36,890 nucleotides of DNA from Chthoniobacteraceae bacterium (GTDB taxonomy: Bacteria > Verrucomicrobiota > Verrucomicrobiia > Chthoniobacterales > Chthoniobacteraceae). The stretch is taken from positions 1 through 36,890 of the forward strand of contig JANNXQ010000276.1 in NCBI GenBank assembly GCA_031409655.1, given 5' to 3'. Shown piece by piece: positions 24,003-36,779 of this stretch (position 1 is its first letter; the number at the start of each line of letters is the position of its first letter). A program made the translations under genes and the position numbers. Below the pieces are notes generated by a model. The model was not told the DNA's origin and ran no database searches. It was given only the letters and a program-made list of their open reading frames with translations.

Positions 24003-27000
24003 TCAAGCGATGGCCCGATTCCGCACATCTTCGAGGATGGAGATCAACGTGTCCACCTGCTGCGAGTTGAACACTCCCTCGACGCCTTGCGTGTGGAAGT
24101 TCGTGTAGGGCGTTTCGTAGCGGCGTTCGGCTGCCATGCAGCCGTGTTCCGTCAGGTGATTGACGATCTCTTCGAGGAATTGCAGTTGGTTCGCGCGCAA
24201 GGTTCCGCCGGCGAGGAATGAAGCGAGCGCGTTCTTGGCGGCCTGGCGATCCAGGCCGACGAGCGAGCGTACGAAAATGCCCAGGCCGTGGCTCTCCTCC
24301 TTCGCCTTCTCCAGATCCTCGGCGGTGCCGATCCCGCTCTCCCTCAGCATCCGTTCCAGTTCGGTCAGATCGGTGCGCGTGAGCGGTTCGTTGGCGCGCA
24401 GCTTGTGGATGGCGAGGTGATCCTCGTGCGCCTTCAAAAACTGGCGGGCCTTGGCGCGAAAACGTTCGTAGCGGTCGGGTGCTGAGAAGCCCGGCAAGTC
24501 GAAGCCCTTCTCCTCGCCCATCAGATCCGCGAAGTCCGTGTAGATCGGCTTCCGCTTCTGTTTCTCGATCAGCTTCACGAGCAGACGGAGCCGCTTCCGC
24601 ACTTCCTCCAGCATGGGCAAGGTCACGTCCTGCCACCATTCATCCGTCTGGAGGTCGTGAATGAGCGGGAGTTGTTGCTGCACCATCGGGATGCCCGCCT
24701 GTTCTTCGAGCAGTCCCGCGATCGCCCTGACCTGATCCCGCAGTCGCGCGAATCCCGGCTCGGAACGGAGCTGCGCGAGCTGAAGGTTCAGCAGGAGCAG
24801 ATCGAACCGCTTCGCTTCCTCGTCGTCGGTTTCGATTTGCGAGGGCAGACCCGCGACGTGTGCCGCGAGTTCGCCCAGCGCGTCGGGGTTCAGCTTCGTC
24901 CACGCCTCGGCGACGGCATACTTTTCCAACAGCCGCCGCTGCGGTCGCACGATGAAGTTCTCGAGATTCATCCCGGCCACTTCGTCCCGCAGGAGCATGG
25001 CCGCTTCCTGGCGCAACGCGTCCAGACTGCCCGGCCCTTCGCGCAAGACGAGCTCCTCGCCGAGTCGCTGGTCGAGGGCCGCGATCAAGTCTAGCCGGCC
25101 AACGAAGAGCCGCTTGCCAAGCGAGGCCCCGAGCGAGCCGTCCGTGGTCTCGGGATTCTGGCTGAAAAACTCCAAGTTCTGGCAGTAGTCGAAAATGGTG
25201 AAGAACTCCTTGTCCTTTCCTGGCGCAAAAAGTCCGGGGCACAACCGCGTCCCGCGACCGATCATCTGCCAGAATTTCGTCTTCGAGCGCACCAGCTTGA
25301 AGAAGACGAGATTCACGACTTCCGGCACGTCGATGCCGGTGTCGAGCATGTCCACCGAGATGGCGATGTGCGGCGCCTTCGTGGAGATCGAGAAGTCGTC
25401 GATCAAACTCTGCGCGTAAGGCAGCCCGCAGTGGATCGCCCGCGCGAACTCGCCCTTCAGGTATGGATAGTTCGCATCAAAGCGCTCCGCGATGAACTCC
25501 GCGTGCTGCTGGTTCTTCGCGAAGATGATCGTCTTCCCCAGCCGGTCGCCGCCGGCCACCTTCTGTCCGCGCGTCATCAGGTGCTCCAGCACCTTGTCCA
25601 CGGTGTCCTGGTTAAAGAGCCACTTGTTCACCGCCTCGGCTTCCACGCGATCCGGCACTTCGCCGTCCTCGCTCCATTCCGCTGCATCCCACTGCTCTTT
25701 CTCCGCCTCGGAGAGATCGTCATATTTGATCCCTTCGCGCTGAAACTTCAGCGGCACGGACACCGCCCGCGGCGGCACGAGATAGCCATCCCGCACCGCT
25801 TCCTCGAGCGTGTAGGCATCCGTCGGCACGCCGCGTTCGAGATCGAAGAGCCCGTAGGTATTGAAGTCGATCTCGTCCTTCGGCGTCGCGGTGAGTCCGA
25901 CCAGCAGCGCGTCGTAGTAGTCAAAGATCGCCCGGTACTTTTGATAAACGGAGCGATGCGCCTCGTCGATGATCACGAGATCAAAGTGCCCGATGCCAAA
26001 GCGCCGCTGCCCATCCTGCGCCTCGTCGATCAGCCGCAGCATCGTCGGATACGTGCTCATGAAGACGCGGCCCTCCTTGTCCTTGTCCGTCACCAGATTC
26101 ACCGGCGCGGAATCAGGCAGATGCTTGAGAAACTCCCGCGCCGCCTGTTTCACGAGGGCCACGCGATCCGCAAGAAAAAGCACCCGCTTCGCCCAGTTGC
26201 AGCGCATCAGCAGATCGCAGAGCGCGATTACCGTCCGCGTCTTGCCCGCGCCCGTCGCCATCACCACCAGCGCCTTCCGGTCGTGGTCGCGCTCGAAGGC
26301 TTCGCCGATCCGCCGCAGGCCGCGGTGCTGATAAGGGCGCTCCACGATCGCTGTGTTGATCTCCGCATCCGCGAGCTTCCTCCGCGTCGTGCGCCGTTGG
26401 ATCATCAGCTCCAGCTCCGCCTTCTTGTGAAAGCCCTGCACCGCGCGCGGCGGAGCGTTCACGTCGTCCCAGAGCCAGTGCTCGTAGCCGTTGCTGTAGT
26501 AGATCACCGGGCGCCGGCCAAACTGCCGCTCCAGACAGTCTGCATAAAGCTTCGCCTGCTGCTGGCCGATCTGCGCGCTCTTCTTGGTCCGCTTCGCTTC
26601 GTTGAGCGCCAGGGGCAATCCATCATCTCCCCAGAGCACGTAATCCACGAACCCTTCGCCACTCTCGTTCGGCATCCCGGTGACGGGATACTCGCGATCT
26701 CTCGCTTGATCCAAGGGCCATCCCGCTTCCCGAAGGAGCAGGTCGATGAAGTAGTCGCGAGTCTCCGCCTCCGAGTAGTCGTGCGTATCCGGCTCCACCG
26801 CGTTCGCCTTCTTCGCCGACGCCACCTCGGCCCGCAGCCGGACCAGTTCGGCATCCAGCGCTGCCTTGTCGGTCAGGACGGCGGAAAGCTTTTCGTCCTT
26901 CTCGCGCAGTCGCGTTTCGAGCTGCTGGAGCTGCGCGAGCGATTGCGCAGGCCCCGCCGTCGTCGGCAGCAGCTCCTGCCGGAAAGCCAGCACGTCCGCA

Positions 27001-27392
27001 GGCTTCGCCCCGCGCGCATACGTCCGCGCCAGCCAAAAGGTGAAGTGGAACAGTTCCCGCACCGCCGTGAGCGCATCGAACTGCCGCACCGGCGCGTGGC
27101 TATGCACCGCCTGATTCCCCAGCTCCTTGATCACCCGCGTCTTCGCCCAGACCGCCGGCCCGAGTGCCGCGCGGAAGCCCGGCTCATGCAGCAGCGCGCT
27201 CAGATGCTCCTGATACGGCAGCCGCAGCGCCCGGTCGTTTTTGTAGAGCCACGCCACCGCCAGCTCCAGCGTCCGCCGGGCGTAGAAGCACGCCGCCCGC
27301 GGATCGCTCATCACGAGCGCCTCCGCCTTCATTCCGGAATCTGATAGCCCCGGCCACTCTGCGCCCAGGAACTGAAAATTCGACGCGCTCAC
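24003..27392 (-). CDS. hsdR: Type I restriction enzyme R subunit (EcoEI-like, with N-terminal DUF4145-like region)
   Basis: Nuclease motif VDYVL...EAKR, Walker A MATGAGKT, DEAH, GLTATP, MLDTGIDVP, QMIGRGTR, and an EcoEI-type C-terminus. Confidence 0.95.
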   Translation of the reverse strand: MSASNFQFLGAEWPGLSDSGMKAEALVMSDPRAACFYARRTLELAVAWLYKNDRALRLPYQEHLSALLHEPGFRAALGPAVWAKTRVIKELGNQAVHSHAPVRQFDALTAVRELFHFTFWLARTYARGAKPADVLAFRQELLPTTAGPAQSLAQLQQLETRLREKDEKLSAVLTDKAALDAELVRLRAEVASAKKANAVEPDTHDYSEAETRDYFIDLLLREAGWPLDQARDREYPVTGMPNESGEGFVDYVLWGDDGLPLALNEAKRTKKSAQIGQQQAKLYADCLERQFGRRPVIYYSNGYEHWLWDDVNAPPRAVQGFHKKAELELMIQRRTTRRKLADAEINTAIVERPYQHRGLRRIGEAFERDHDRKALVVMATGAGKTRTVIALCDLLMRCNWAKRVLFLADRVALVKQAAREFLKHLPDSAPVNLVTDKDKEGRVFMSTYPTMLRLIDEAQDGQRRFGIGHFDLVIIDEAHRSVYQKYRAIFDYYDALLVGLTATPKDEIDFNTYGLFDLERGVPTDAYTLEEAVRDGYLVPPRAVSVPLKFQREGIKYDDLSEAEKEQWDAAEWSEDGEVPDRVEAEAVNKWLFNQDTVDKVLEHLMTRGQKVAGGDRLGKTIIFAKNQQHAEFIAERFDANYPYLKGEFARAIHCGLPYAQSLIDDFSISTKAPHIAISVDMLDTGIDVPEVVNLVFFKLVRSKTKFWQMIGRGTRLCPGLFAPGKDKEFFTIFDYCQNLEFFSQNPETTDGSLGASLGKRLFVGRLDLIAALDQRLGEELVLREGPGSLDALRQEAAMLLRDEVAGMNLENFIVRPQRRLLEKYAVAEAWTKLNPDALGELAAHVAGLPSQIETDDEEAKRFDLLLLNLQLAQLRSEPGFARLRDQVRAIAGLLEEQAGIPMVQQQLPLIHDLQTDEWWQDVTLPMLEEVRKRLRLLVKLIEKQKRKPIYTDFADLMGEEKGFDLPGFSAPDRYERFRAKARQFLKAHEDHLAIHKLRANEPLTRTDLTELERMLRESGIGTAEDLEKAKEESHGLGIFVRSLVGLDRQAAKNALASFLAGGTLRANQLQFLEEIVNHLTEHGCMAAERRYETPYTNFHTQGVEGVFNSQQVDTLISILEDVRNRAIA

Positions 27393-27417: not shown

Positions 27418-28218
27418 CTACTTGGCGAGTACGAATGGTTCCTCCACGGGAGCGGCTTCTGTGTCGTTCGCCAGCGGCAGGAACGCTTCGCCGCTCATTG
27501 GCTCATAGCCTTCCGGCCAGCAGCCGCGAAAGCACACCACGACTCGCTGTCCAGGAGGAGCCGGGGGGGGATTCAGTCGTGCTACCTGCGCCTCTACCCG
27601 GCAGTTGGCAAAGAGCACCTGCACGAGATCATGGAAGAGATAGCGCGGCGCCCAGCCAATGATCACGTTGTCCTGCGTTTGAATCTGGAGCGCATGGCCA
27701 GTGACGGGATTCGTCGCTTCGAGGCAGACTCCTAGTTCTTCTTGCTCCGCGAGTTTGCTGATCCGCTCCTCGGCATACGGGTGAATGTGCCGCCAGCCGT
27801 GGAGGAAAAATTTGATCGCAAACGTTCCATCCGGCCCACGCTCCACCTTTGGAAAGACTTCGAGGTTGTCCGTCGCGCGTCGCCCCTCGCTCACGGCCAG
27901 CACCTCGATCGGATCGAAGGCCTCCGGGGGTTCGTAGGAGACATCGAGCCGTTGCAGGTATTCCCGGAAGCTCGGGCGAGTGGAATTTTGCAGCCGGTTC
28001 GCGAAGAGCGGGAAGAGCTCGACTGCGCGGTAGTCGGCGCGCAGGTCCGGGAAGCTGTCGAGCGCAGAAAAACCGAACTCCTTCGCCTGTTCGGCACCGC
28101 GCACATAGCGAAAGCGATATTGCTGCGCCTGCACGTCTGCGTCCAGCCGCCCCACGGGGAACCAGGCCCGCGTTTTGGCGGTGTCTTTCCAGGCGATGAA
28201 GAGCGTTTTTAGGGACAT
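27418..28218 (-). CDS. Protein with a HipA N-terminal (HipS-like) region and a HIRAN-like domain
   Basis: LFIAW...WFPVGRL...YRFRY...FPDL..Y...LFPLFANR...RP (HipA N-subdomain-like), G.RATD.LEVFP linker, FFLHGWRH...E..NP....A....IIGWAPRY (HIRAN-like). ATG 28218 overlaps the kinase 3' end. Confidence 0.75.
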   Translation of the reverse strand: MSLKTLFIAWKDTAKTRAWFPVGRLDADVQAQQYRFRYVRGAEQAKEFGFSALDSFPDLRADYRAVELFPLFANRLQNSTRPSFREYLQRLDVSYEPPEAFDPIEVLAVSEGRRATDNLEVFPKVERGPDGTFAIKFFLHGWRHIHPYAEERISKLAEQEELGVCLEATNPVTGHALQIQTQDNVIIGWAPRYLFHDLVQVLFANCRVEAQVARLNPPPAPPGQRVVVCFRGCWPEGYEPMSGEAFLPLANDTEAAPVEEPFVLAK

Positions 28219-29105
28219 GGAATTCGGAGGAGCACTTCGCGTGACACTTTGACGAGCGAGGCTGCGAACGCGGCTTGCGGCTGGGTCATCCAACCGTCGG
28301 GCGTACTCTGGAGTATGGCATGGATGGCGTCGTCAGTCACGCGCGAGACCTCTCGCAGCCACGGCGAAAAATGTCGAGGCAACTGTGGCGCCACCGTCTC
28401 GACGAGCACCAGTGGCGGTACGGGCGCTTCGCCGCGCTCCGCGAGATAGATCCCTCCCGGTCCGCGGCGCAGGTAGCGTTCCTCCAGCCGACTCTCCGCC
28501 AACAGGCGCTCCCGTCGTACATCCCGCATCTCCCGCCCCAGCGAGGAAGCGTGATCGAAGGACGGGGCCAGTCGGTGCTCCGGCCCACCCCGCGAGCGAC
28601 GCAGCAGACCCCAGTTCTCATGGTGCCGGTCCGTGTTCCCGATCAAGGCGTCGAAAACCAGATAACCAGCGAGTTGCCGCAAGTCTTCCTCGCAGTGTCC
28701 ACCGCACACGGCGCGGATCGCTTCGAGCACGCGCTCCCAAGTGTGATCGCTGGTCCGCCGTTTTCGCATCGGGTCGTAACCCCGCACCCGACCGGCGATG
28801 ACTTCATTGCCATGCACGAGCACTTCGTCCGGCTGCTCGATCTTCTGCGCGACGGTGCCGCGCCGTCCCTCGAATTCCGCCAACTCCACCCGCGCCACCG
28901 GCAATGCGAGCACCCCGGCGATTTCAGCGGCGATCTTCTCCGCGAGGTGCTCCATCTTGCCCGGTTCCTGCCGCGGCTCTTTGAAGAGCCAAAGCCCGCC
29001 GCCCGCTTCCGGTGGGAGTTCGCACCAAAACTTGTCCTTCGAGCCCATTGGCTCATCCTGCCGCACCATCGCCGCCGTCACCGGGATGATCGGGAACGCC
29101 GCCAT
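28209..29105 (-). CDS. HipA-like (PI3/4-kinase superfamily) Ser/Thr kinase
   Basis: EPMGSKDKFW loop, LFK, EH.AEKIA, catalytic loop FDALIGNTDRHHENWG, Mg motif LAPSFDHASSLG. Confidence 0.88.
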   Translation of the reverse strand: MAAFPIIPVTAAMVRQDEPMGSKDKFWCELPPEAGGGLWLFKEPRQEPGKMEHLAEKIAAEIAGVLALPVARVELAEFEGRRGTVAQKIEQPDEVLVHGNEVIAGRVRGYDPMRKRRTSDHTWERVLEAIRAVCGGHCEEDLRQLAGYLVFDALIGNTDRHHENWGLLRRSRGGPEHRLAPSFDHASSLGREMRDVRRERLLAESRLEERYLRRGPGGIYLAERGEAPVPPLVLVETVAPQLPRHFSPWLREVSRVTDDAIHAILQSTPDGWMTQPQAAFAASLVKVSREVLLRIPCP

Positions 29106-29107
29106 GC

Positions 29108-30322
29108 CTAAAGTTCTCCGCGGAAGGCGCGGTGCTGGAGGGTGGCGAAGAGCGCGTCCAGCTCCGCCAGCGACGCGCCCTGCGCCGTCTTCAGCGCCTC
29201 CACCGCCGTCACTCGCCGGGCGAATTCGCGCTGCAATGGAATGGGGGGAAGCGCGACGACGGCCGACTCAAGTTGCCATCCGCTGACGTTCGGTTGCGCG
29301 ACACCTGCGGCGAGTTGCCAGAGGAAGCGTTGGTAGAACGGGGAGCGCAGAAGGCCGATGAGGAACTCCCGCTGAATCCGAGCTGCATCGCGGATGCGGT
29401 AATTGCCGACGCGCTGATTCAGGTAGAGGTCTTCGCTGAGTTCCAGCGGGACGACGCCGAGTTTTCCGGTGGTTGCGCCAGACATGGCGATGAGAATGTC
29501 TCCGCGATGGATTTTGTAGCCGACACCTTTGCCGAGCTTCTCGTCTGGAATGCGGGCGATGCCGTCGAGGTCTATTCCGTCTCCAGTTAGATTCGAGATT
29601 CGGACGACGGCGTTGCCTTCTGCCGCGAAGTCTTCGGATTTGAAGGCGTAGCCGCCGACCAATTTCACGACCTGACCAAGTTCGACTTTCGGGAATCCTT
29701 TCGGGTTGGTGGCGGGGTCGCCGAAGAGGTCGAGGAAGAGGGATTGGGTGAGGGAGTCGAGTTGGGCGAGGGCGGCGCGGCGCTTGGCCCGCAACGCCTC
29801 CGCCCGGTCCAGAACCTCCGCTATCCGCCGCTGCTCCGCCAGCGGCGGCAGGGGGATTTCAAGCCGTTCGAGAAAGTATTTCGGCACACGCCGCTGTCCC
29901 GCGCTGCCGGTCATCTTTCGCGCACCGTCAATGCGAACGTGACCCTGCCGCAGGAAATGCAGGAGGTATCGAGCGTCGAGATTTTCGCCCGGCGAGAGGA
30001 CGTGAAATTCCGTGGAGCCAAAGCCGTAACGCTGGGTGATCCGCGCCTGCACGATCTTCCCGTTCTCAAAGCAAGGCGTGATCTTGGCCACAAGCACGTC
30101 GCCATCCATGAACCACGGGAAGCCCTGCAAAACGTCGCCGAGTTTGCGAACCTCCAGCCGCTCAATATTCGCAGTCTCCGCAGAGACCGCAGCCATCGGA
30201 ACGAACGCGACTTCTTCATCGCTGTCGATGCAGTCGTCGAACCACGCGGGGTTCACCTCCGCGACTTCACCGAGCGCGACGCTTTTCCTATCCGCAATCC
30301 GCAATCCGCGATCCGCCCTCAC
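29108..30322 (-). CDS. hsdS: Type I R-M specificity subunit
   Basis: Two TRDs (KITPCFENGK...GSTEF; GYAFKS...SGATTGK...NQRV) separated by PLPPLAEQRRI...LFLDLFGDP. C-terminal PPIPLQREF...AFRGEL. Confidence 0.93.
   Translation of the reverse strand: MRADRGLRIADRKSVALGEVAEVNPAWFDDCIDSDEEVAFVPMAAVSAETANIERLEVRKLGDVLQGFPWFMDGDVLVAKITPCFENGKIVQARITQRYGFGSTEFHVLSPGENLDARYLLHFLRQGHVRIDGARKMTGSAGQRRVPKYFLERLEIPLPPLAEQRRIAEVLDRAEALRAKRRAALAQLDSLTQSLFLDLFGDPATNPKGFPKVELGQVVKLVGGYAFKSEDFAAEGNAVVRISNLTGDGIDLDGIARIPDEKLGKGVGYKIHRGDILIAMSGATTGKLGVVPLELSEDLYLNQRVGNYRIRDAARIQREFLIGLLRSPFYQRFLWQLAAGVAQPNVSGWQLESAVVALPPIPLQREFARRVTAVEALKTAQGASLAELDALFATLQHRAFRGEL
30290..30317. repeat. Four tandem ATCCGCN heptamers just inside the hsdS start
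   Basis: ATCCGCA ATCCGCA ATCCGCG ATCCGCC. Encodes RADRGLRIAD on the minus strand. Confidence 0.8.
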
Positions 30323-31956
30323 TTCAGCATCCCCTCCAGTTCCTTCATGCCCTGCTGGATCTCCGCCTCCAGTTGGCCGAGGGCTTTCAGGATTTCGCCC
30401 GGCGGGCGGTGCGCGACGTCGGCGTGGACGACTTCCTTGTAGCGGTTGAGCGAGAGGTCGTAGCCCTGCGCGGCGAGGTCGGCCCGGGGCACGCAGAAGC
30501 TTTGCGCGGTGCGCGGGTTCTGGCGCTCGTGGTAGGGCTGGCGCGCCGCGCCGGCCGCGTAGAGGGCGGGAGCTTCGCGGACAACCACCTCGCTGTGCTC
30601 GCCCGGCGGCCGGCTCGGCGAGCCAGCCCTACCAAGGGAACGCCAGCGGGCGAGGATGTCGGGCAGGTTGTTCTTCGCGTGGTCGGCGGCGGTGAGGGCG
30701 ACTTTCGGCACGGGGCCAAGCTTTTCCGGCGGCAGGAGTTCGGTGCGTTTGTCGTCGAGCGACATGCCGTCGGCGTCCACGTCGTAGAACCACACATGGT
30801 CCGTGCCGCCGGAGTTGGTCTTGGTGAAGAGGAGGATGGCGGTGGAGACGCCGGCGTAGGGCTTGAACACGCCGCCGGGCAGCGAGATGACGGCGTCGAG
30901 TTTCTGTTCCTCGACGAGGAGCTGGCGCATCGTCTTGTGCGCGTTGGACGAGCCGAAGAGGACGTCGTCGGGCACGATGACGGCGGCGCGTCCGCCGGGC
31001 TTGAGCAGGCGCAGGAAGAGGGCGAGGAAGAGCAGCTCGGTCTTCTTGGTCTTGACGATTTGCTGGAGGTCCTTGGCGCAGTTCTCGTAGTCGAGCGAGC
31101 CGGCGAAGGGCGGATTGGCGAGGACGAGGGTGTATTTTTCCTCCTCGCCCGCGTGGTCCTGCGCGAGGGAGTCACGGTAGCGGATGTCGGGATTTTCCAC
31201 GCCGTGCAGGAGCATGTTCATGCTGCCGATGCGGAGCATGGTGTTGTCGAAGTCGAACCCGTGAAAGAGGTGGTGGTGGAAGTGTTCCTTGAGCTTCGTG
31301 TCGCGGAGGATTTCCGGGTGATGGTCGCGGAGGTATTCGCCCGCCGCCACGAGGAAGCCGCCCGTGCCGCACGCGGGGTCACAGATGACGTCCTTGGCCA
31401 CGGGCGCGGTGAGTTCGACCATGAGCTGGATGATGTGGCGCGGGGTGCGGAACTGGCCGTTCTGCCCGGCGCTGGCGATCTTCCCGAGCATGTATTCATA
31501 GAGGTCGCCCTTGGTATCGCGGTCCTCCATCGGCACGCCGTCAATCATGTCCACGACCTTGGCGAGCAACGCGGGCGTGGGGATGGTGAAACGCGCATCC
31601 TTCATGTGGTGCGCGTAGGTGGAATCGTCGCCGCCGAGGGTGCGGAGGAAGGGGAAGACGTGGTCGTTGACGACCTCGAACATTTCGGCGGGCGCGACGT
31701 TTTTAAACTTCGACCAGCGGAGATCGTCGTACGCGCGGCCCTTGGGGTCCTTGCCCTCGGGGAAGACGCGGCGCTCGAGTTTCTTGAGTTTCAGGCGCGC
31801 GGCTTTGTTTTCCTCCAGCGTGTGCAAATCATCGAGGCGCTTCAGGAAAAGCAGGTAGGTGATCTGCTCGATGACTTCGAGCGGATTGGAGATGCCGCCG
31901 GTCCAGAAGGCATTCCAGAGGGCGTCGATTTTACTGCGGATTTCGCCGTTGAGCAT
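30319..31956 (-). CDS. hsdM: Type I R-M N6-adenine methyltransferase M subunit
   Basis: GQFRTPRHII, DPACGTGGFL (motif I), LANPPF (motif IV), YDLSLNRY. Confidence 0.96.
   Translation of the reverse strand: MLNGEIRSKIDALWNAFWTGGISNPLEVIEQITYLLFLKRLDDLHTLEENKAARLKLKKLERRVFPEGKDPKGRAYDDLRWSKFKNVAPAEMFEVVNDHVFPFLRTLGGDDSTYAHHMKDARFTIPTPALLAKVVDMIDGVPMEDRDTKGDLYEYMLGKIASAGQNGQFRTPRHIIQLMVELTAPVAKDVICDPACGTGGFLVAAGEYLRDHHPEILRDTKLKEHFHHHLFHGFDFDNTMLRIGSMNMLLHGVENPDIRYRDSLAQDHAGEEEKYTLVLANPPFAGSLDYENCAKDLQQIVKTKKTELLFLALFLRLLKPGGRAAVIVPDDVLFGSSNAHKTMRQLLVEEQKLDAVISLPGGVFKPYAGVSTAILLFTKTNSGGTDHVWFYDVDADGMSLDDKRTELLPPEKLGPVPKVALTAADHAKNNLPDILARWRSLGRAGSPSRPPGEHSEVVVREAPALYAAGAARQPYHERQNPRTAQSFCVPRADLAAQGYDLSLNRYKEVVHADVAHRPPGEILKALGQLEAEIQQGMKELEGMLK
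30530..30634. repeat. GTAG-type REP dyad (REPIN-like) inserted in frame within hsdM
   Basis: Arms TGGTAGGGCTGGCGCGCCGCGCCGGCCGC (30530-30558) and GCGGCCGGCTCGGCGAGCCAGCCCTACCA (30606-30634) are inverted repeats matching at 27/29. Each arm has its own internal hairpin after GTAG. Confidence 0.8.
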
Positions 31957-33993: not shown

Positions 33994-36675
33994 TCAAAGC
34001 GCGATCCCGAAGCGCTTGAGCTTCGCGTAGAGCGTTGGGTGGTGAATGCCGAGCAGTTCGGCGTCGCGCTTTTTGTTGCCGCCGGAACGCCGCAGCGCGT
34101 CGATCAAGGCTTCGCGCTCGATGCCGCCGAGCGTGTGCGGCCCGCCGCCGACCGCGGCGGGCGCGGGGGCGCGATCGGGACGCTGGATTTCGCTCGGGAG
34201 AAAGTGCGGACCGAGGATCGCGCCATCGCAAAGCACGAGCGCGTGCTCGACGGCGTTTTGCAATTCACGCACGTTGCCAGGCCATGAGTAGCCGCGCAGA
34301 AGCTCGAGTGCTTCGGGTGCAAGTTGCGGCACGGGCTTGCCGAGCTGCTGGGCAAAGCGGCGCAGAAAGGTGTCGATCAACTTGGGCAGATCTTCGCGGC
34401 GCTCGCGCAGCGGCGGGACTTCGATCTCAAAGGTCTTCAGCCGGAAATAAATATCCTGCCGCAGCCGTCCTTCCTGGATGGCCTGGGCCGGCGAGCGATT
34501 GCAGGCGGCGATCAGGCGAAAATTCGCGGGAAGGTTTTTCGTGGAGCCGAGCGGGCGAAATTCGCGGTCCTGCAACACGCGGAGAAAACGCGTCTGCAAC
34601 TCCGCCGGAAGTTCGGTGATCTCATCGAGAAAGAGCGTGCCGCCGTGTGCTTCCGAAAGCATCCCAGGGAACGCCGCGACCGCGCCGGTGAACGCGCCCT
34701 TCACGTAACCGAACAGCTCCGACTCGATCATGTTCACGGGGAAGGCTCCGCAATTCAGTTTCACCATCGGCCCCGCGGCGCGCGCGCTCTGGCGATGCAC
34801 GGCGGTGGCGAAGACCTCCTTGCCCACGCCGCTTTCACCGGTGAGCTGCACATTCGCCTCGCTCGGCGCAACGCGCGCGATGAGTTGCTCGACTTCGCGC
34901 ATCCGTCGGCTGATGGCCACCGGCCCGAGTTGTTCCTCCGCGGCTTGCAGGCGTTTTTGCAGCACCGCCTTTTCCTCGCGCAGCTTCGCCGTTTCTCGCG
35001 CCAGCGTCTGGTGGTCGAGCGCCCGCGTGCAGAGACTCTGCAGCTCCTCCACGGCGTAGACCTTCGAGAAGAAATGAAACGCGCCTTGCTTGATCGACTT
35101 GATCGCATTGGCCAGTGAGTCGTTCGCCGTCAGCACGATCACCGGCAGTTCGGGATGCGCCGCCTTCAGCTCCCGCAGGCCGTCCAGCCGCACGCTGGGG
35201 GCGATCCCATCTGGCTGGACGGGCTGCGGGGGATGATCGTGGCCGCGGGCGGTGAGTTGTTCCTTGAGCTCGCGCACGGCGATCATCGGGATCTCGACGT
35301 GGAAGGTCGCGCCCTGGCCTTCGCCCGCGCTGCGTACGGTGATGGTGCCGCCGTGGAGTTCGACCAGATGTCGGGTGATGGAAAGTCCGAGCCCGAGCCC
35401 GCTCTGCGCACGCGCGATACTCGCGTCCTGCTGCGAAAAGCGGTCGAAGATGCGCGGGAGAAAATCGGCGCGCACGCCCTGCCCGGTGTCGCGGACTTCC
35501 AGGGCCACCGCCGAACCGGTGCGCGCCACCGAGAGCGCGACCTCGCCGCCGCGCGGGGTGAATTTGATGGCGTTGCTCACGAGATTCCAAACGACCTGCT
35601 GGAGCCGGTCGGGATCACCCAGCACTTCGGCGGCTTCCCCGCTCGCGCCGAGGGCGATTTTCACCCCGCGGGCCTCCGCCGCGGGCCGCAAGCCTTCCAC
35701 CACACCGGTGACCAGCGCGCGGAGATCGACCTCGCTGATCCGCAGCCGCACCTTGCCGGAGATGATCCGCGAGACATCGAGCAGATCGTCGATCAGCCGG
35801 GCCTGCGCGTGGGCGTTGCGGTCGATGGTGTCGAGACCCTCCTGCAATTCCTGCGCATCGGTCGCGCCCTCGCGGAGCGGGCTGGTCCAGCCGACGATCG
35901 CGTTCAGCGGAGTGCGCAGCTCGTGCGAGACGACGGCGAGAAACTCATCCTTGAGCTTGTTCGCATGGGTGGCCTCGCTGTGCGCGGAGCGCTCCGAGGC
36001 GAGCAGCGATTCCACGCGCGCGCGGGCCTCCCGTTCGGCCACCGCCAGGGTTTCCCTTTCGGAAAAGTGCAGGCGGGCGAGAAAAAAGAGCGCGATCAAG
36101 GCGCCCGCGACGACGACGGTCGCGAGCAGATTGAGCGTCGCCGTGAAGGCAAGCTGTCTCTCGGCGGCCGCGAGCAGGCCGGCCATCGTGGCTTCGAGTT
36201 CGCCATCGAGCTTCGCCGCGAGCAGACGGATCTGATCCATCAAGTCCTTGCCGTGCCCCTGCCGCAACATCGCCAACGCGGCCTCCGGGCCGTGCTCCCG
36301 GCGCTCGGCGATCGCGGCCTCCAGCGCCGTCATTTTTTGAGATCCCAGCGCCTCGATCCGGTCGCGCAGCCCCGCCAGTTCGAGCTCCGGCGTGAGCAGC
36401 GTTTTCATACGGAGGTCCGAGCGGGCGATGGCGGCGTGGGCCGCGAGAAACGGCTCCAGATACGGCTCCTCCCCGGTCAGCAGAAATCCGCGTTGTCCCG
36501 TCTCCGCGTTCACGTAGGCGGCGAGCAGTTCCCGCAGTTCGATGCGGATGCCCGCCACCTCCGCGATCCGGCGCTGGCTGACGCGCAGGCGCGCCGCCGT
36601 GCGCACATTCATCGCCGTATCGAAGCCGAGGAGCAGGAGCAGCGCGATGAAACCGAAGAGGAGGGATTTTTTCAT
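33994..36675 (-). CDS. CHASE3 histidine kinase fused in frame to a half receiver domain and a sigma54-dependent AAA+/Fis-HTH activator (probable deletion fusion of two genes)
   Basis: AETGQRGFLLTG (CHASE3), SHELRTPLN, NLVSNAIKFT, GLGLGL. Then RLDGL|RELKAAHPELPVIVLT, GESGVGKE, GAFTGA, LFLDEI, WPGNVRELQN, HTH. Start MKKSLL at 36675 is preferred. Confidence 0.85.
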   Translation of the reverse strand: MKKSLLFGFIALLLLLGFDTAMNVRTAARLRVSQRRIAEVAGIRIELRELLAAYVNAETGQRGFLLTGEEPYLEPFLAAHAAIARSDLRMKTLLTPELELAGLRDRIEALGSQKMTALEAAIAERREHGPEAALAMLRQGHGKDLMDQIRLLAAKLDGELEATMAGLLAAAERQLAFTATLNLLATVVVAGALIALFFLARLHFSERETLAVAEREARARVESLLASERSAHSEATHANKLKDEFLAVVSHELRTPLNAIVGWTSPLREGATDAQELQEGLDTIDRNAHAQARLIDDLLDVSRIISGKVRLRISEVDLRALVTGVVEGLRPAAEARGVKIALGASGEAAEVLGDPDRLQQVVWNLVSNAIKFTPRGGEVALSVARTGSAVALEVRDTGQGVRADFLPRIFDRFSQQDASIARAQSGLGLGLSITRHLVELHGGTITVRSAGEGQGATFHVEIPMIAVRELKEQLTARGHDHPPQPVQPDGIAPSVRLDGLRELKAAHPELPVIVLTANDSLANAIKSIKQGAFHFFSKVYAVEELQSLCTRALDHQTLARETAKLREEKAVLQKRLQAAEEQLGPVAISRRMREVEQLIARVAPSEANVQLTGESGVGKEVFATAVHRQSARAAGPMVKLNCGAFPVNMIESELFGYVKGAFTGAVAAFPGMLSEAHGGTLFLDEITELPAELQTRFLRVLQDREFRPLGSTKNLPANFRLIAACNRSPAQAIQEGRLRQDIYFRLKTFEIEVPPLRERREDLPKLIDTFLRRFAQQLGKPVPQLAPEALELLRGYSWPGNVRELQNAVEHALVLCDGAILGPHFLPSEIQRPDRAPAPAAVGGGPHTLGGIEREALIDALRRSGGNKKRDAELLGIHHPTLYAKLKRFGIAL

Positions 36676-36779
36676 GGGACGGGAATTTCCCGCCATGAGG
36701 AAGGGAGGCGCTACCACGCGAGCAAGCCGAGCGGGGAAAATATTCACCCACTCGGCTGGCTGCTGGACAAGCCCGGGAA

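Follow-up and report, generated by a model that had tools for sequence, protein, structure and literature searches.

A hipIN/PDC-M03-type kinase–HIRAN pair between hsdS and hsdR of a Chthoniobacteraceae type I restriction-modification operon: a candidate anti-phage module, probably carried as exchangeable cargo

The DNA analysed here, hereafter the window, comprises 36,890 nucleotides of contig JANNXQ010000276.1 (assembly GCA_031409655.1) from a Chthoniobacteraceae bacterium of the phylum Verrucomicrobiota. It carries a complete type I restriction-modification (R-M) operon of five genes, all on the minus strand, in the order hsdM–hsdS–kinase–partner–hsdR. The methyltransferase gene hsdM (30319-31956) encodes 545 aa with an intact NPPF motif (PADLOC MTase_I, E 1e-186; Pfam N6_Mtase and HsdM_N), hsdS (29108-30322) a 404-aa specificity subunit (PADLOC Specificity_I, E 2e-69), and hsdR (24003-27392) a 1129-aa restriction subunit of the EcoEI_R_C type (PADLOC REase_I, E 3e-165; Pfam HSDR_N, ResIII and EcoEI_R_C). 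Between hsdS and hsdR lie the genes of a small HipA-like kinase of the HipI type (28209-29105, 298 aa), reduced to the core domain, and of a HipN-type partner (27418-28218, 266 aa), a putative antitoxin and sensor. The kinase gene follows hsdS after 2 nt and overlaps the partner gene by 10 nt, and 25 nt separate the latter from hsdR. The ATG at position 28218 was preferred as the partner start because homologue matches begin at residues 1-4; the longer TTG start at 28293 returned by the ORF finder was unsupported. An earlier note on this DNA had given this gene order, strand and spacing together with the kinase motifs, all of which were confirmed on the sequence. It had also stated that no HipB-like HTH gene is present, and indeed the operon has no room for a HipB-type gene, so that a hidden one was rejected.

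Contigs of the DNA runs X1 and X2, which belong to one study, probably the source study, and are therefore not independent, ran from the end of hsdS through kinase and partner into hsdR with 0 differences. Since they cross the junctions, an assembly artefact was rejected. No terminator-like site was seen between the operon genes, and their spacing suggests co-transcription. The promoter scan was uninformative (1 site against 0.8 expected, on the opposite strand). In the RNA check, from which small-share runs were left out, run X20 (share 0.05) covered conserved hsd pieces only and gave no support for expression of the pair. GC3 values of kinase, partner and hsdS (0.73-0.76) were lower than those of hsdM (0.89) and hsdR (0.83), which may be a weak sign of separate origin. 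The HsdM protein, at 545 aa, exceeds its best model (491 positions) and contains a low-complexity stretch near residues 440-480 that resembles an insertion. Elsewhere in the window (33994-36747, minus strand), a CHASE3-HisKA-HATPase protein is continuous, in a single 917-aa ORF, with a truncated receiver and an HTH-bearing sigma-54 activator; the ORF lies close to the end of the contig and could be either a true gene fusion or a product of the assembly.

The identification of the first embedded gene product as a HipA-like kinase was borne out by Pfam HipA_C (E 2e-14), by the PADLOC model PDC-M03A (E 4.6e-77) and by its fold. The motifs L40-F41-K42, D159-R-H-H-E-N164 and F183-D184-H185 are all present, and K42, D159, N164 and D184 were invariant in 102/102 aligned homologues. 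The motifs of hipIN kinases, whose labels were set here by analogy, were likewise found (G21/K23/K25, H98-G99-N100, D159-R-H-H-E-N164 and D184), with 98-100% conservation of the named catalytic positions over the 102 rows. The N-subdomain-1 of about 100 aa is missing: the HipA_C match starts at residue 21 of the 298 and the alignment with HipA only at residue 125. The structure model (pLDDT 92.7) was closest to CtkA (Z 26.0, rmsd 2.6, 263 aligned residues), followed by HipT and HipA with Z 16-18 (HipA, Z 16.4), and CtkA (PDB 3akj) was also the nearest solved kinase by sequence (E 3e-12). CtkA of Helicobacter pylori is a single protein described as a proinflammatory kinase and is 20% identical to the window kinase; all that the comparison establishes is that a structure other than HipA is nearest. 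For this reason a tRNA-synthetase target cannot be assumed: of the translation-blocking kinase proposed earlier, the HipA-like fold stands and the assumed target in translation is weakened. NCBIfam returned only a weak YjjJ match for the kinase and no model at all for the partner.

The partner matched PDC-M03B (E 2.3e-75), and its domains were resolved by fold searches only, as a profile comparison with sequences of solved structures gave nothing relevant and Pfam HIRAN scored E 0.027, under the cut-off. In the structure model (pLDDT 91.2), residues 3-125 (27844-28212, minus strand) matched the HipS fold (7vkb_B, Z 9.9, rmsd 2.2, 101 aligned; E. coli HipS 7ab3_B, Z 9.4), and residues 128-237 (27508-27837, minus strand) matched the HIRAN fold (3k2y, Z 12.3; HLTF HIRAN 4xzg, Z 9.9, rmsd 3.2, 106 aligned). 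HIRAN was also the top ESM Atlas match for the latter region (0.91). The HIRAN domain expected from the earlier reading was thus found, together with the HipS-like domain.

The putative ligand pocket of this HIRAN domain is altered. In HLTF, D94 is described as recognising the 3'-OH, Y72 and Y93 as pinching the last bases, and N90 and N91 as being needed as well (PMC5773155, PMC4666394). In the partner, N170-P-V-T173 (27700-27711, minus strand) takes the aligned place of N-Q-Y-D and N-H-Y-D in two canonical homologues and is a variant of the N-x-Y-D end-binding motif, its correspondence to HLTF numbering being inferred from the motif rather than from residue-level superposition. N170, G141-x-R143 and G188-x-x-P are retained, and Tyr-Asp is replaced by Val-Thr. 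Position 173 is Thr in 91/99 aligned homologues and Asp in 1/99, and it is Thr in 60 of the best 80 of at least 533 genome loci; the motif of the subfamily reads N-P-[AV]-T, with Ala/Val-Thr in place of the canonical Tyr-Asp. Among the 41 hipIN rows in Table S1 of Gerdes et al., compared by eye, about 31 have Asp at this position and 0 have Thr. Because the surrounding pocket is strongly conserved, the alignment suggests a changed ligand more than decay. HIRAN DNA-binding motifs were reported to be kept in most HipN proteins and not in actinobacterial ones (PMC8262856), exceptions which indicate that they are not defining. The earlier proposal that the domain senses DNA ends, a hypothesis already in print (PMC8262856), retains its fold; canonical 3'-OH sensing is weakened by the Tyr-Asp replacement, and this subfamily would be predicted not to bind 3'-OH ends as HLTF does.

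Association of the two proteins, also claimed previously, is supported at the level of prediction. The modelled complex scored 0.91, the best control 0.00, with a contact agreement between runs of at least 89% and a partner pLDDT of at least 86. The mark for this score was reached by 116/157 solved pairs and 2/215 mismatched ones, counts that are only roughly applicable with own alignments, and complexes of HipST have already been solved, so that the pass may reflect likeness. The predicted interface involves kinase residues 11-27 and 88-116 and partner residues 48-87 and 110-118, as well as the HIRAN loop 218-224. The HipS-like domain, which forms the main predicted kinase-binding surface, would sit over the Gly-rich loop and the activation segment of the kinase, as HipS does on HipT, where it acts at the Gly-rich loop (PMC10627512). 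Interface conservation gave no support (0.68 at the interface, 0.65 elsewhere).

A scan of GTDB genomes confirmed at least 533 relatives among at least 599 stretches, the best 80 of which were used. The partner lay directly downstream of the kinase, on the same strand, in 80/80 kinase loci among these best 80 of at least 533; the partner match fell in a second frame in two of the 80, and one kinase contained a stop. In partner-first searches restricted to loci with upstream room, the kinase was broken in L134 and L139 and missing in L137, L130 and L107, numbers that are small and to which assembly errors may contribute. Loss of the kinase with retention of the partner fits the polarity expected of a toxic kinase and a protective partner. 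It is worth noting that in L137 (2123-9363) an hsdM-hsdS-GmrSD/Schlafen fusion is followed by the partner gene without kinase and then by a transposase. Homologues were detected by tblastn in 5 phage records and in 8 from plasmids; scanning viral contigs with the partner, an approach limited to close relatives, gave no match. A Vibrio prophage whose capsid gene is of the PM2 type carries one intact pair (L129:10953-12646) as cargo beside its integrase.

Two independent samples were also examined. Of 60 relatives searched, 3 carried the partner (0/3 genomes of the same genus): in two of them it occupies the hsdS-hsdR slot with a different HsdR type, and the third has neither kinase nor R-M genes on a short contig. 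A phylum sample of 400 genomes yielded the partner in 5, once before hsdR, once alone behind hsdM-hsdS-GmrSD, twice without an hsd gene and once on a 2.8-kb contig.

Analysis of the flanks (up to 8 kb, tblastn with 13 Hsd queries) revealed a type I gene in 20 of the best 80 of at least 533 loci, or in 15/64 when only loci flanked on each side by 5 kb or more are counted; the other 60 of these best 80 had none. Six of the 20 R-M loci have the pair between hsdS and hsdR, 5 (one clade) after an hsdS that ends an R-M-S operon, 2 after hsdR, 1 after a short hsdM fragment, and 6 nearby but outside the operon. Copies within an hsd operon at all were found in 13 of the best 80 of at least 533 loci. 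Random 17-kb windows contained hsd genes in 314/20000 cases (1.6%), a background taken from the genome of the window alone and compared with relatives that are not independent. Proximity to R-M genes was enriched relative to this background. The defence context suggested in the earlier note was supported. In 4 more of the best 80 (L002, L027, L064 and L039), the pair comes directly after a type IIG or type III gene; the host R-M systems include three kinds of type I as well as types IIG and III. No extra domain was seen that distinguishes the hsd-embedded copies.

Other neighbours included SoFic, IetAS, pAgo-SIR2, AbiTii and GmrSD, and many loci lay among housekeeping genes without a defence neighbour. 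This survey is based on 276/322 picked neighbours run through PADLOC, and defence neighbours are undercounted since some scanned ORFs may be wrong frames. Contexts could differ between very close copies: near-identical L043 and L051 are found in an hsd operon and beside pAgo-SIR2, respectively. Genes for pAgo and its SIR2 partner precede the pair in L073 (3914-6998) and L051 (4456-7633), in L073 within the hsdS-hsdR slot. In L097 (3273-5069), the pair shares its hsd slot with a second PADLOC candidate, PDC-M19A/B, which comes after it. Hsd slots also hold ORFs without a Pfam or PADLOC match, namely two of 158 aa behind the pair in L003 (2675-3621) and one of 1484 aa ahead of it in L044 (2842-7293).

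The slot itself appeared to be a site for varied cargo. A close HsdR was detected in 11/300 genomes of the class, and the pair was present in 0/9 of those examined. The four closest HsdR relatives (53-68% identical) hold other genes between hsdS and hsdR, namely a DrmD-like helicase with VapBC, an ABC ATPase with AbiE, a Schlafen ATPase, and STAS-like genes. Blastn likeness to three of these relatives (L120-L122) ends at window positions 29110-29114, coinciding with the stop codon of hsdS and the onset of the cargo, and in L120 (6251-6335) the 3' end of hsdS occurs a second time (88% identical to that of the window), between two cargo blocks. This end point and this duplicate would be consistent with cassette exchange by recombination. 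As the slot is also used by many unrelated defence genes, a special link of the pair to the restriction enzyme is unlikely. The PrrC-like coupling to R-M put forward in the earlier note was accordingly not upheld, most homologues being without type I genes nearby and the slot of close HsdR relatives carrying unrelated cargo.

A quick IQ-TREE tree of 90 kinases, built without five near-duplicates and without loci whose kinase match did not exceed 200 residues, showed the R-M-linked copies to be scattered. The label 'no R-M operon' required 13 changes on this tree, at least 6 of these changes being forced by well-supported branches. The clade of the window kinase (10 rows, support 99) contained six type I rows, three of them near-identical, and two type IIG rows; of the remaining two, the sister of the window kinase (L085), also its nearest kinase, has no type I gene in its flanks and no R-M linkage, and one was too short to judge. 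R-M linkage was thus observed in 5/6 informative lineages of this clade.

Taken together, these data are best explained by a self-contained toxin-antitoxin module of the hipIN kind with an anti-phage role, carried as exchangeable cargo in the hsdS-hsdR slot, a reading to which we assign a probability of about 0.6. The HipS-like domain, with a predicted contribution of the HIRAN loop, would cover the Gly-rich loop and activation segment and keep the kinase off until HIRAN meets an infection cue. This cue would most likely be a nucleic-acid end or a fork structure, and probably not a plain 3'-OH read in the way of HLTF. Once freed, the kinase would arrest growth by phosphorylating an essential protein of the host. 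The hsd slot would supply expression and co-transfer with the R-M genes rather than the trigger. Autonomy is favoured because 60 of the best 80 relatives lack type I genes and because solitary copies, the prophage copy and the L043/L051 pair show that contexts vary. Several observations count against it: the 3'-OH pocket residues are changed, a fused HipL-type relative was not validated, many homologues have no defence neighbour, and R-M linkage in 5/6 informative lineages of the window clade is more than a random hotspot model needs. Part of this evidence would also suit a module without anti-phage function, that is, a selfish addiction system or a stress or dormancy toxin-antitoxin system that stabilises its locus or answers DNA damage. 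The HipA family offers precedents, many copies sit among housekeeping genes, the distribution is patchy (0/3 and 5/400 genomes, as above), and the fused HipL relative was non-validated (PMC9122126). Such a role is nevertheless improbable, if worth keeping in mind, given recurrent defence neighbours, presence in prophage hotspots, the kinase activity needed for defence by another HipA-like pair, HipAD/DS-6 (PMC13092281), and the prediction of a defence role for a 246-aa HIRAN protein in the DefensePredictor supplement.

The proximity to R-M genes can be read in three further ways. The module could bind or monitor the Hsd complex and fire when a phage anti-restriction protein inhibits it, as in the PrrC and Ronin type of guard. 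The tight operon, hsd genes near 20 of the best 80 loci compared with 314/20000 random windows, recurrence in several kinds of type I operon, the slot position in 2 of the 3 partner-carrying relatives (60 searched) and existing precedents (Silas et al.) would all suit such a guard. It is however very doubtful: PrrC has been reported as embedded in nearly every case and RonA as hsdMS-linked in all, whereas only 6 of the best 80 copies are embedded here and 13 are in an hsd operon; moreover, prophage and solitary copies exist, embedded copies have no extra domain, and the host systems are unrelated, which makes a shared protein interface unlikely. A looser relation, in which an autonomous module is triggered by DNA ends from restricted phage DNA so that proximity to any R-M nuclease is selected, would account for the enrichment beside several R-M classes, often directly behind a gene with a recognition domain (type IIG in L002, L027, L064 and L091; type III in L039), and for the HIRAN fold. 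The mostly R-M-linked window clade keeps this possibility open, but it is a poor candidate: all kinds of cargo are enriched in such slots, which makes the enrichment non-specific, being encoded beside the nuclease is no requirement for a diffusible protein, and the end-binding Asp is replaced. In a more speculative combination, judged unlikely as well, the re-tooled pocket (N-P-[AV]-T, with conserved W142, R143 and R192) would recognise something different from a free 3'-OH, for instance restriction ends that are blocked or phosphorylated, or a phage or Hsd protein, and the pair would have been repeatedly recruited behind type I, IIG and III systems as a kinase second line firing on R-M activity or failure.

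Whatever its trigger, the pair is a new copy of a described module, real and intact. PADLOC matched 9 A models to the kinase and 7 B models to the partner, the best being full-length matches to PDC-M03A/B in adjacent genes; the assignment is made from model matches and adjacency, independently of PADLOC's own rule file. PDC-M03 is described as HipA plus HIRAN proteins (PMC13245101), and the PDC set goes back to cassettes lying inside BREX, DISARM and type I R-M systems, only Hma-embedded candidates being reported as tested in the preprint (Payne et al. 2024, 10.1101/2024.01.29.577857). R-M embedding is the kind of observation that defines PDC candidates, and no difference from PDC-M03 was found in the available description. 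The same organisation had been named hipIN (HipI kinase and HipN) by Gerdes et al. in 2021, with no experiments listed for the clade in the article, together with the proposal of abortive infection by a kinase that is switched on when HIRAN detects the ends of phage DNA; the word 'restriction' is absent from its main text (PMC8262856). HipA-HIRAN clusters have moreover been predicted as defence genes (PMC11706625) and a 'HIRAN-kinase' pair was listed in prophage hotspots by Rousset et al. A fused relative (exonuclease and HipL-type kinase, pFR108) was among the non-validated systems tested against eight coliphages (PMC9122126), and the literature and supplements searched, which leave most subscription papers outside, contained no experimental test of hipIN or PDC-M03. 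The novelty presumed in the earlier note therefore does not hold; family, defence candidacy and end-sensing hypothesis were all previously published, and the locus adds little as a discovery. Its value is that of a test case: the copy is intact, its complex is predicted with confidence, and the surrounding type I operon is complete.

When set by eye against the 41 hipIN rows in Table S1 of Gerdes et al., the window pair has the same architecture and shares motifs: a small kinase without N-subdomain-1, an abutting downstream HipS-like plus HIRAN gene of about 250 aa, and the same proposed mechanism. It differs by N-P-[AV]-T in HIRAN, where those rows have mostly Asp. A Vibrio homologue is 31-34% identical, and comparison by eye with the reference rows makes the kinase a candidate member of the HipI subclade of clade XI. 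HipBST is likewise similar through the HipS fold (Z 9.4-9.9), the predicted Gly-rich-loop contact and a kinase without N-subdomain-1 (PMC10627512), but the window pair has no HipB, its HipS-like domain is encoded downstream and fused to HIRAN, and the kinases are 14-15% identical in structural alignment. HipAD/DS-6 also combines a HipA-like kinase with a non-HipB partner (PMC13092281); identity with it was rejected, as that partner is a DUF3037-DUF1829 protein and not HipS-HIRAN. PrrC in EcoprrI and Ronin (10.1101/2023.04.06.535777) likewise reside inside type I hsd operons and are reported as always or nearly always hsd-linked, whereas the family of the window pair mostly is not, and its effector is a kinase. 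If the pair did answer restriction products or anti-restriction proteins, it would represent a kinase counterpart of PrrC and a new use of HIRAN.
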